From positions 1,564-65,563 of the forward strand of contig NZ_JABSOV010000010.1 in NCBI RefSeq assembly GCF_013215345.1: DNA of 64,000 nt. Reading direction: 5' to 3'. Below the pieces are notes generated by a model, which was not told where the DNA came from, ran no database searches, and saw only the letters and a program-made list of their open reading frames with translations. Position numbers and translations under genes: made by a program. The stretch comes from Colwellia sp. GTDB lineage: Bacteria > Pseudomonadota > Gammaproteobacteria > Enterobacterales > Alteromonadaceae. Of the stretch, positions 30,319 through 33,226 are shown one piece after another. Numbering within the stretch: position 1 is the stretch's first letter; every line of letters starts with the position of its first letter.

Positions 30319-30395
30319 GGTGGCTATAGCTCAGTTGGTAGAGCCCCGGATTGTGATTCCGGTTGTCGAGGGTTCAAGTCCCTTTAGCCACCCCA
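30319..30395 (+). tRNA. hisR: tRNA-His (GUG), including G-1 and encoded CCA
   Basis: GGTGGCTATAGCTCAGTTGGTAGAGCCCCGGATTGTGATTCCGGTTGTCGAGGGTTCAAGTCCCTTTAGCCACCCCA, 77 nt. Confidence 0.98.
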
Positions 30396-30900
30396 TTCTT
30401 TTCTTCCTTTGTAAAACTTATACTCTAAACAATCACGAGTGATTCCATTTTCGATTTACCGTGAATTCAAGTCCCTTTAGACAGCCCATCTTTTACTATT
30501 CCCATAAAACATTTAGAACTAGAAAGAATCACCAATGATTCCGTTATTCACTTACCGTGGATTCAAGTTCCTTTAGCCACCCCATCTTTTCTTCCTGTTT
30601 TAAACTTATACTCTAGACAATCACGAGTGATTCCATTATCGCTTTACCGTGGATTGAAGTCTTATTAGCCACGCCATTTTTTATCTCTATTTCAAATATA
30701 TTCCTGCTTAATTAAATCACGGGTGATTCCACTATTACTCTGCCGTGGATTGAATTTCCTTTAGCTACGCCCATTCTTTTATTATTCTCGTAAAACATTT
30801 AGAACTCGAAAAAATCACCAATAATGCCATTATTCATTTCCGTAGATTCAAGCTCCTTTAACTAGCCAGCCTTTTATATTCTTTGAAAAGCTCTAAACAA
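30396..30900 (+). repeat. Degenerate tandem array (period 92-97 bp), each unit carrying a tRNA-His 3'-end copy
   Basis: TT(C/G)AA(G/T) anchors at 30373 (tRNA), 30466, 30562, 30654, 30750, 30847; recurrent AATCAC-NN-(G/A)TGATTCC...TTACCGTGGA. Confidence 0.92.
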
Positions 30901-31116
30901 TCCAGTATCTCAAATAGCATACTGATTTTCGTCTACTGTTAACTTAACTCAATTGTTCATACTCTAGTTCTAGGTACTGCCAATAACGAGCAATCTAACT
31001 CGCATTTTGCAAAATAAAAAGCACTCTTCCACACTGTAAGCTATATGCAAATCCATAGATTAAAAATATAGAGCAAATCACGATGTAGATCATAAAATTA
31101 AGCGCTGTTAGTTAAA

Positions 31117-31133
31117 CTGGAACGTCACTTGCA
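31117..31133 (+). promoter_or_regulatory. Putative sigma54 -24/-12 promoter upstream of the sensor kinase
   Basis: CTGGAACGTCACTTGCA, GG-N10-GC with good flanks. Confidence 0.55.
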
Positions 31134-31288
31134 TTATTTTTTGGCAATTACTGCCAATTCCCGTAGACACTCAAGTCGGCGGAGAAAATGAAGCCATAAA
31201 GAGGATTTTAGCTCGGTATGCAAGTGCATAAAACAGCAGTTGAGTAATCTGCATGGGTAGTATTATCAGTCTTGTTCGAGGTATTACT

Positions 31289-33067
31289 ATGGTTAACAAA
31301 GGTGACAAAGTAGGCTTGTTACATAAAGCGACATCGATATTTTTAGGGACTCAGACACTAACTCTAGCCATGCTACTTATGGTTGCGAGTATTGTGATGA
31401 CTTACGTTTATGTCTTAGAGATATCGGATAATTCTGCCAATGAGGATTCAATATCCGGAGCTCAGCGATATATAGAAGCATTAACATCCTTTCGAACTTT
31501 ATATACCTCAGAAGTAATCAATACCATTACCGACGCCGAAGGTGATGCTTTAACCATAACCCATAATTATAAAAACATTAAAAACGCGATTCCTCTGCCT
31601 GCTACATTAAGTATGGCGTTAGGGGATGAAATTGGAAAACTCCAATCAGGAGCGAAAACAGCTTTATATAGTCCATTTCCTTTTCCATGGCGCAAACAAG
31701 AAAGTAAAAAATTATTTGATGGCCTTTTCGCTAAAGAGGCATGGGCGAGTTTGGTGCAAAAACCTCATACCCCCTATTATCGCTTTGAAGAAATAAATGA
31801 TAAAAAATATATTCGCTATGCTGTTGCTGATTTAATGCGTGCTAGCTGCATTGACTGTCACAATAACCATCCGGATACACCTAAGAATGATTGGCAGGTA
31901 GGTGATGTGCGCGGCATTATCGAAGTTTTATTACCTGTCAGTATCGCCAAGGATCAACAACAGTCATCATTACAAAAAACCTTTATGGTCTTATCTAGCT
32001 TCCTCTTAGTTATATTCTGTATTTTATTCTTATTTATCGCTCGTATAAAACAAAGTGAGCGACGCCTTACACAATCTAATACTCAACTAGTTAAACAAGG
32101 AAATATTTTAACAATAGCTAACATTGAGGTTGAAGATGCGCGAATAAAGCTAAGTAATTACGCGACTGAATTAGAGGAAAAAGTAGATTTACGCACCAAA
32201 CAACTACAAGAACATCAGCAGCAATTAATACAGTCAGAAAAATTTGCCTCATTAGGGGTGTTGGCCGCAGGTGTTGCCCATGAAATTAATAACCCGACCG
32301 CTTTTGTAAAAAGCAATATGCAAGTATTGACTGAATATATGACTAGCATACAACTCATTATGCAAAACTATAACGCCTTAGAAGAAAATATAATTAAATC
32401 AAATGATCTAGGGTTAATTAAAACCTTAGAAAGGGTACAACAACTAAAGTCGACTCATAACCTCGATTATATATTGTCTGATGTGAATTCACTTTTACTC
32501 GATTCAAGTAGCGGTTTGGATAGGATAATAACAATAGTACAAGATTTAAAAAGAGTTTCTTATGTCGGTAGTAACGAATTGACTAAAGTGGATTTAAACT
32601 CAGATGTCATTGAATCTGCTTTGCACTTAGTAAGGAACGAGTTGAAATTTAAGTGTAGCTTGACAACTTCTTTTTCAAAACTCCCTTTGTATGCATGTCG
32701 CCCCAATGAATTAGGTCAAGTTATTATAAATTTATTAATGAATGCTGGCGATGCAATTACCGACAAGGGTATGGGTATGGGTATGGGTATGGGTATGGGT
32801 ATGGGTATGGTTAATATTACCAGTGAAGTTAACAAGGCAAACATAATAATTTCTATAACCGACAACGGCTCCGGTATTACAGACGAAAATATAACAAAAA
32901 TATTTGATCCCTTCTTTACCACCAAAGGACTAGGTATAGGCACTGGATTAGGATTATCTATTTCTAAGGGCATAATTAAAAAACACGGAGGAACTTTATC
33001 GGTTAGCTCTCAAACAGGGCAAGGCAGCACTTTCACTATAACATTACCATTAACGCTCTCCATATAA
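31289..33067 (+). CDS. Sensor histidine kinase with periplasmic DUF3365/Tll0287-like c-type heme domain
   Basis: CIDCH heme motif between two TMs, H-box AHEINNP, N/G1/F/G2 boxes. ATG 31289 has a GAGGT RBS (track start 31253). Confidence 0.9.
   Translation: MVNKGDKVGLLHKATSIFLGTQTLTLAMLLMVASIVMTYVYVLEISDNSANEDSISGAQRYIEALTSFRTLYTSEVINTITDAEGDALTITHNYKNIKNAIPLPATLSMALGDEIGKLQSGAKTALYSPFPFPWRKQESKKLFDGLFAKEAWASLVQKPHTPYYRFEEINDKKYIRYAVADLMRASCIDCHNNHPDTPKNDWQVGDVRGIIEVLLPVSIAKDQQQSSLQKTFMVLSSFLLVIFCILFLFIARIKQSERRLTQSNTQLVKQGNILTIANIEVEDARIKLSNYATELEEKVDLRTKQLQEHQQQLIQSEKFASLGVLAAGVAHEINNPTAFVKSNMQVLTEYMTSIQLIMQNYNALEENIIKSNDLGLIKTLERVQQLKSTHNLDYILSDVNSLLLDSSSGLDRIITIVQDLKRVSYVGSNELTKVDLNSDVIESALHLVRNELKFKCSLTTSFSKLPLYACRPNELGQVIINLLMNAGDAITDKGMGMGMGMGMGMGMVNITSEVNKANIIISITDNGSGITDENITKIFDPFFTTKGLGIGTGLGLSISKGIIKKHGGTLSVSSQTGQGSTFTITLPLTLSI
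32768..32809 (+). repeat. In-frame hexanucleotide microsatellite (GGTATG)7 encoding (GM)7
   Basis: Seven perfect units counted directly. Confidence 0.97.
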
Positions 33068-33174
33068 CACTACTTCGCCAGTTATACTGGCATATACGGC
33101 TAAAAAAACCAATGTTACTTGGCTTCATTTGCATTGATATGACTGAAAGTATTCTGTGGTCTCAGCTAGTGTTT

Positions 33175-33226
33175 GATTGATTCCTTTGCTTCGTTTCTTT
33201 GGGTTTAAGCCCCTTTAGTCACGCCA
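33175..33226 (+). repeat. Distal copy of the tRNA-His 3'-end repeat unit (attR-like)
   Basis: 33201-33226 is 22/26 identical to 30370-30395 and is preceded by TTGATTCC at the same spacing as in the array. Confidence 0.8.

Follow-up and report, generated by a model that had tools for sequence, protein, structure and literature searches.

Degenerate partial copies of tRNA-His bracket a sensor kinase gene in Colwellia: a probable decaying repeat family in a hypervariable flank

In a draft genome of Colwellia sp. (G000; 4.24 Mb in 257 contigs), a 64,000-nucleotide window (G000:C2:1564-65563) contains a tRNA-His gene followed by a tandem array of partial tRNA-His copies, an orphan sensor histidine kinase gene and one more, outlying copy. 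We consider it likely that these copies are decaying, non-functional partial duplicates of tRNA-His in a hypervariable flank, and that the kinase was inserted there once and has been inherited vertically ever since, with no current gene traffic. The initial annotation of the window had read the same arrangement as a landing pad in which single genes are captured between repeat units. For comparison with the locus, 40 relatives were searched at the DNA level and 55 Colwellia species at the protein level, and repeat units were surveyed in the 55 genomes with a sequence-only covariance model (CM) built from 12 units. G-numbers denote the Colwellia genomes compared, one per species, several of them metagenome-assembled genomes (MAGs); the closest relatives of G000 are Colwellia MAGs from deep sediment traps.

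The array and the distal unit

The tRNA-His (GTG) gene lies at 30320-30395 on the forward strand (Rfam RF00005, 67.9 bits) and was the single tRNA-His called by ARAGORN in the whole G000 draft. Directly behind it, on the same strand, stands a five-unit array (30396-30882), resolved by a repeat search and TRF as five tandem units over 30373-30882 with a spacing of 92–97 nt, and scoring 53–72 bits with nhmmer and the CM; a period of 188 nt scores better, and there is a higher-order repeat of 286 nt. Each unit of ~96 nt is a degenerate copy of tRNA-His, starting at the anticodon (GTGATTCC) and including the 3′ end and the trailer, built in the order AATCAC-NNN-TGATTCC, 17 nt, the T-arm/acceptor-like GGATTCAAGTCCCTTTAGCCACCCCA, TCTTTT and an AT-rich spacer of ~35 nt. 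The conserved blocks stand at approximately 30431-30494, 30527-30590, 30619-30682, 30715-30778 and 30811-30876 of the forward strand. The motifs TGATTCC, TTCAAG and TTTAG are almost unchanging across units, which differ from one another by 12–40%; the connector between TGATTCC and the T-arm part measures 17 nt in the array units against 10 nt in the tRNA. The spacers fall into types a, b and c, the b type following u1 and u4.

A cmscan search of 29900-33400 at E ≤ 1 returned the tRNA and one chance match, with no Rfam family for the units, and RNAalifold on 12 units gave no pairs, no consensus fold and no covariation. The array contains no repeated small open reading frame (ORF) of the tpr kind, nor was one seen in the leader before the kinase, and a terminator scan found no terminator-like site from tRNA-His to the kinase. 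The units were also considered as the decayed remains of whole tRNA genes in a tandem array, a reading that was dropped because by eye the ~45 nt 5′ of TGATTCC do not resemble the 5′ half of the tRNA.

A sixth, distal unit (33170-33233) lies 2.3 kb away from the array on the same strand, beyond the kinase. It comprises TGATTCC at 33178-33184, a connector of the array's 17 nt and not the tRNA's 10 nt, GGGTTTAAGCCCCTTTAGTCACGCCA at 33201-33226 and then ACCTTTT. The T-arm/acceptor-like GGGTTTAAGCCCCTTTAGTCACGCCA is identical to the tRNA end at 22 of 26 positions, as first reported, and the reported distance of about 130 bp from the kinase stop (33067) is borne out, TGATTCC lying 110 nt and the T-arm part 134 nt beyond the stop. 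In a profile search with the distal copies left out of the profile, the distal unit was the top non-array match genome-wide (20.2 bits, E = 0.0015), the next best match being a chance one (E = 0.72). Allowing up to six mismatches, the 26-mer had no further site outside the array on either strand of the 4.24-Mb draft (8.5 Mb in total). The kinase is indeed bracketed by direct tRNA-3′ repeats, the distal one being unique outside the array in this genome.

The distal unit is old. Its counterpart in the sister species G055 is 95% identical; the G000 copy shares ~50% identity with the array units overall and 59–74% in the 3′ part, and its 5′ third is, beyond TGATTCC, not recognisably homologous to them. 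Identity between the two units that flank the kinase is 59% in the T-arm/acceptor part; judged from their sequences, these units (~50% alike) appear too diverged for a present-day att pair.

Synteny and vertical inheritance of the kinase

Kinase orthologues (93–94% identity at the amino acid and nucleotide levels) were found only in G055 and G059, 52 of the 55 species being without the gene. The remaining kinase-like proteins reach no more than 51% identity over the sensor domain, or ~35–38% over the full length. The G055 locus, which sits on a 1.3-Mb contig of an independent assembly, is collinear with that of G000 at ~90% nucleotide identity through AcrB, tRNA-His, two units, the 370-nt leader, the kinase, the distal unit, the LysR and SDR genes and onward. 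By blastn, the leader is 90–92% identical in G055 and G059 and collinear with the kinase. In G059, tRNA-His holds a 21-kb island, and the island's displaced, degenerate tRNA 3′ fragment stands immediately ahead of the unit, leader and kinase; the distal unit, LysR and SDR have been deleted. The kinase is fixed within this three-species clade.

The G059 island (L045/L046, G059:C257:6210-27421) encodes an FHA-domain protein, a Ser/Thr kinase-FGE-sulfatase fusion and an SLT transglycosylase among ten annotated ORFs, and many of its ORFs lack a Pfam match. No PF00589 match was found on its contig.

In G021, the next relative in which LysR-SDR synteny is kept, tRNA-His is followed by tRNA-Pro, one unit, an HMA (MerP-like) gene, a membrane ORF and a MerR gene (~1.4 kb) and then by LysR; both the kinase and the distal unit are missing. 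The LysR-SDR segment is 81% identical to that of G000 at the nucleotide level, the match beginning at window position 33284, and the LysR gene marks the right border of the variable region. Because G021 has merR/merP-type genes instead of the kinase, the flank from tRNA-His to LysR is a replacement hot spot. The comparison at tRNA-His that had been proposed as a check was only partly favorable to gene capture: different genes do occur in G021 and unit number does vary, but no other gene was found between equivalent units. It had also been stated that a kinase syntenic and vertically inherited in all relatives, together with an absent or unalignable distal unit, would speak against capture. We found the kinase syntenic in the closest relatives though not in all, and the distal unit both present and alignable. 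Metagenome scans with a LysR-end pattern, seeking empty or other sites, and with a leader pattern, seeking other kinase contexts, each returned 0 matches.

The kinase gene

The kinase (31253-33067, forward strand; Pfam matches and translation) is the only long ORF of the interval from tRNA-His to the distal unit and follows a non-coding leader (30883-31252, forward strand) that begins after the last array unit. The 604-aa product is laid out as an N-terminal membrane anchor, a haem-c sensor with CIDCH, a second membrane segment, a coiled coil, an H-box and HATPase_c. The sensor domain is Tll0287-like haem-c (PF11845, 9.5e-14), HATPase_c matches PF02518 (1e-24), and the H-box, AHEINNP, was read in the translation, the protein having no HisKA Pfam match at E ≤ 0.001. 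HATPase_c, H-box and sensor domain together identify a two-component sensor histidine kinase. No response regulator adjoins it; the next gene is a LysR-family regulator on the opposite strand (33288-34196, PF00126 and PF03466).

Across the three sister species, dN/dS amounted to 0.16–0.23 at a dS of ~0.12, and the kinase evolves under purifying selection. Comparing its GC content and GC3 with the genome, along the lines of another check that had been suggested, did not set the gene apart: its GC content of 0.364 is low (4th percentile of long ORFs), but its GC3 of 0.311 is ordinary against a genome mean of 0.328. An exact-protein look-up of the kinase returned no record.

The reading frame upstream of codon 40 is interrupted in both sister species, by a 1-nt deletion (nt 88) in G055 and by a TGA (codon 9) in G059. 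These lesions reflect either MAG errors, or pseudogenisation, or a start at 31370; the ATG at this position (M40) may be the true start of the kinase. An in-frame microsatellite, (GGGTAT/GGTATG)x7, occupies 32767-32810 of the forward strand (TRF, 7.3 copies, 100% matches) and encodes (GM)7 in the ATPase domain. G055 has three imperfect copies (GMDMGM) and G059 none; the microsatellite is a recently expanded, lineage-specific and length-variable loop insertion.

Units across the genus

Full-length units were detected in 9 of the 55 species, always directly 3′ of tRNA-His, and in none of the other 46. Besides the five units plus one distal unit of G000, we found two plus one distal in G055, four in G044 (93-nt period, three of them with identical scores), two each in G050 and G008, and a single unit each in G024, G057, G059 and G021. 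A gene stands between units in the G000/G055/G059 lineage only, and it is always the same kinase in the same place; the arrays of G044, G050, G008, G057 and G024 have no gene between units. The proposed capture of single genes comes down to one gene in one lineage among nine unit-bearing species.

The unit family bears the marks of exchange within itself and with the resident tRNA gene. The AAATCC T-loop variant seen in the tRNA-His of G008 and of G057 recurs in the units of the same genome, the G044 units have private variants in common, and the five-unit array of G000 aligns twice onto the two-unit array of G055 (G055 U1 being 88% identical to u1, and U2 77% to u5). From these spacer, alignment and variant patterns we infer unequal crossover between units, and gene conversion, within a tandem family, and not stepwise gene capture.

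Three species, G050, G008 and G057, have their units within a Pro-Arg-His-Pro operon, in the gap that separates tRNA-His from tRNA-Pro. The tRNA-Pro(TGG) of that operon (L050-L052) is itself followed by ~100-nt repeats, ~150–700 nt after tRNA-His, each ending in the tRNA-Pro 3′ end (AATCTTGCATCACCGACCAC); they form a second array of the E. coli tyrT type in the genus. In G000, a degenerate 3′-end copy of tRNA-Arg(ACG) was seen 177 nt downstream of that gene on contig C250.

Integrases and islands at tRNA-His

No PF00589 integrase is encoded on contig C2 or within the interval, in agreement with the initial annotation of an integrase-free locus. The five PF00589 matches of G000 fall on contigs C147, C41, C69, C224 and C233; among its integrase genes are two of non-Xer size (381 aa on C69 and 425 aa on C224), and equal-sized ORFs occur in G055 and G059.

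Elsewhere in the genus, exact direct repeats of 44–46 bp, starting at ATTGTGATTCC in the anticodon loop, bound islands of 1.5–22 kb in at least 10 species. The tRNA-His 3′ end is a proven integration site in Colwellia; repeats that start in the anticodon loop are the classical signature of the "A" subsite (PMC4383910), and displaced tDNA fragments mark island ends (PMC4383910, PMC9897764). Among the tRNA-His islands checked, integrases were present only in the 21.8-kb island of G011. The G003 island (4.1 kb, AAA ATPase and S8 peptidase) and the G001 island (2.8 kb, ParE/Phd) have none, and further integrase-less islands were found in G004, G008 (three contigs, several islands stacked), G015, G041, G046, G059 and G070; the loci of G001, G003, G004, G008, G015, G041, G046 and G070 are L016, L017 and L096-L104.

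These islands have conserved arms, 77–98% identical between species, around different cargo. The left arm covers ~100 nt after the tRNA and contains CCTGTGCATATTCTGTGAGT; the right arm covers ~125 nt before the distal repeat, contains ATATTCTGTGAGTTTGC and ends in CCTATACCGACAACGTG. A second arm family is found in G003 and G070. Cis-mobilizable elements (CIMEs), known for example from streptococci, consist of DNA between att-like direct repeats without recombination or transfer genes and arise by accretion at tRNA or other att sites. The armed, integrase-less tRNA-His islands represent such CIME-like accretion. The arms were found nowhere in G000, whose spacers, leader and tail are unrelated to them, and a pattern scan of IMG/VR viral contigs for a unit-like attP on phages or other elements gave 11 chance matches and 0 full units.

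In G015 (L096) and G046 (L099), the bounding repeat extends over ~240 nt and consists of the His 3′ half, a spacer, the whole tRNA-Pro and ~70 nt more. Because it spans the whole tRNA-Pro, the island end carries a spare tRNA-Pro gene.

Comparison with known systems

The E. coli tyrT/tyrV locus has 178-bp repeats in 3.14 copies, with the RttR RNA and the tpr ORF. The number of tyrT repeats reportedly changes by unequal recombination (Egan and Landy in 1978, Rossi and co-workers in 1981). Inspection of the E. coli sequence NC_000913 showed three copies spaced 178 nt apart, of which the last overlaps the final 19 nt of tyrV at its 3′ end. As at tyrT/tyrV, where tandem repeats start inside the tRNA 3′ end and each unit bears the terminal segment of the tRNA, the G000 repeats stand in tandem directly 3′ of the tRNA and each includes a tRNA 3′ segment. 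The two differ in the length of the copied part (~50 nt against 19 nt) and of the unit (96 nt against 178 nt); the tRNA-His units have no sequence or Rfam similarity to RttR and no repeated ORF, and in G000 a protein-coding gene separates one outlying unit from the array.

The kinase interval also resembles the tRNA islands collected by Islander in its intact tRNA, its 3′ fragment starting at the anticodon loop and its cargo missing in relatives (PMC4383910). One end is an intact tDNA and the 3′ side carries a cognate tDNA fragment in the same orientation; at the same site in G021, the interval is absent. It fails the integrase filter because no integrase lies in the interval, and it differs further in that the fragment is degenerate, the connector is 7 nt longer and there are five extra units free of cargo. 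With CIMEs the locus shares DNA between att-like direct repeats without recombination genes of its own; it differs in that no cognate element was found, the repeats are ~50% alike and the arms are missing. The likeness to integron cassettes is limited to the principle of repeated recombination sites with single genes between them: there is one gene, with no adjacent IntI-type integrase and no attC-like fold, and none of the features by which an integron is recognized was seen. The locus, best seen as an inert remnant, comes nearest to the E. coli tyrT repeats and to tRNA islands that are decayed or CIME-like. An undescribed system, as first proposed, is not needed, the locus fitting the known kinds of tRNA-end repeats and decayed tRNA islands.

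The 5′ flank and repeats behind protein genes

The best consensus match to a promoter in the region, a sigma-70-like TTGTCA-18-TATACT (30250-30279, forward strand, 10 of 12 positions), may serve tRNA-His; it is a consensus match only. The 5′ side of tRNA-His is variable too: the segment 27495-30313, which includes a gene for a methyl-accepting chemotaxis protein (28250-29929), replaces ~96 nt of G055, and the tRNA-His promoter/leader differs from that of G055. A short C-terminal fragment at ~30030-30170 looks Fic/AlbA-type-like by eye. Positions 29987-30320 match the region upstream of a tRNA-His in at least 10 other species at 81–86%, a pattern that suggests homologous exchange anchored in the tRNA gene.

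The "3′-end echoes" noted behind pyrB and moeB proved to be real direct repeats at the 3′ ends of these genes (6512-6708 and 17415-17629), one of 79 nt with 87% identity and a spacing of 118 nt, the other of 81 nt with 91% identity and a spacing of 134 nt. That G000 duplicates the ends of protein genes and the end of tRNA-His alike hints at a common, integrase-independent recombination process.

Discussion

The anatomy of the locus, its distribution and synteny, the selection on the kinase and the differences in copy number are observations; the mode of the original kinase insertion and the unequal crossover we infer from them. A neutral tandem family would have been seeded by a partial duplicate of tRNA-His that began in the anticodon loop and took in the 3′ end and the trailer. 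Its unit number would rise and fall through unequal homologous recombination between units, and the T-arm/acceptor part of the units may have been partly homogenised against the resident tRNA-His. A single entry of a module of leader, kinase and ~110-nt tail into the flank would have taken place in the shared ancestor of G000, G055 and G059. The module would have come either as the cargo of an island that recombined with a unit or with a tRNA end, or through recombination anchored in homology, and would have left one unit on each side. The kinase would since then have been an ordinary selected chromosomal gene of vertical descent, the repeats that bracket it decaying. We saw no sign of present gene capture or release at the locus in the comparison of one genome per species.

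Several observations weigh against this account. All units have a 17–19-nt connector that the tRNA lacks, and because of it they are not simple displaced tRNA ends. The persistence of the family in nine species, co-varying with the resident tRNA, could reflect selection for function. The two units that flank the kinase share a derived 3′ end (GCCAACCTTTT versus CCCCATCTTTT), which would be expected from att-site duplication and hints at a duplicated crossover segment. Rare excision of the kinase segment may also occur, one genome per species having been compared.

The shared GCCAACCTTTT end is what a CIME-like explanation would build on. Leader, kinase and tail would form an integrase-less island with unit 5 as attL and unit 6 as attR, inserted by a tyrosine integrase encoded elsewhere into a unit that served as a secondary attB, and in principle still excisable in trans. 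Integrases of non-Xer size (381 and 425 aa) elsewhere in G000, with ORFs of the same sizes in G055 and G059, could act on it, and other Colwellia do have integrase-less tRNA-His islands with exact 46-bp repeats and arms, often in tandem. We nevertheless regard it as unlikely: identity between the bracketing units is ~50% over the whole unit and 59% in the T-arm/acceptor part, the island arms of the genus are missing from the whole G000 genome, the module occurs at one site in three sister species by vertical descent, and the viral contigs yielded no cognate integrase-bearing element with a unit-like attP.

It is rather improbable that the units are functional parts of the tRNA-His transcript, acting in processing or termination or as small RNAs, with the kinase possibly read through from the tRNA promoter. 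Such a role would suit the finding that three species have units in tRNA operons, flanked by the His and Pro genes, the persistence of the family in nine species with nearly invariant TGATTCC, TTCAAG and TTTAG, and the lack of a terminator-like site between tRNA and kinase. A precedent of the same architecture exists in the E. coli tyrT/tyrV repeats, for which the RNA RttR has been proposed (PMC2965389). Against it stand the missing conserved structure, covariation and Rfam match at E ≤ 1, and a copy number of 0 to 5 with no units in 46 of the 55 species; the conserved letters are moreover those in common with the tRNA and are explicable by gene conversion.

We give little credence to a broader possibility, namely that the tRNA-His 3′ end and the unit arrays are a shared docking site at which a recombinase acting in trans loads, stacks and removes integrase-less cassettes. 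If true, this would amount to a tRNA-end-based, integron-like exchange platform, in which the kinase would be an old cassette, by now frozen, and the units would act as secondary att sites or as decoys.

The active, integron-like landing pad, with single genes repeatedly captured between units and lost again, is very improbable. The bracket architecture, the other genes at the equivalent spot in G021 and the variable unit number are in its favor, but the genus survey largely refutes it: only one gene, in only one lineage, lies between units, the arrays of five other species are gene-free, and no distal unit follows the mer-type genes of G021. Neither a platform integrase nor an attC-like fold of the units was found. 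Capture and loss by recombination between units, as originally suggested, is likewise at odds with a vertically inherited kinase, flanking units ~50% alike and the absence of a conserved unit fold. An assembly artefact, with array or bracket being a mis-join of strain variants, is conceivable for a 257-contig, probably metagenome-assembled draft whose kinase-bearing relatives are MAGs, but can practically be dismissed given the identical order in the independent G055 assembly (1.3-Mb contig) and, in part, in G059, and since units that differ by 12–40% assemble unambiguously.

The relatives of G000 show that an integrase-free gene between tRNA-end repeats is not necessarily a mobile cassette; the kinase is fixed and under selection at a recombination hot spot. 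The locus adds to the picture of genome plasticity in marine bacteria, in which tandem half-copies of tRNA-His expand, contract and homogenise, similar repeats stand behind tRNA-Pro, and armed islands are stacked at the same tRNA end. For the annotation of tRNA fragments and the mapping of islands by tDNA fragments, arrays of this kind would be a source of mis-calls.

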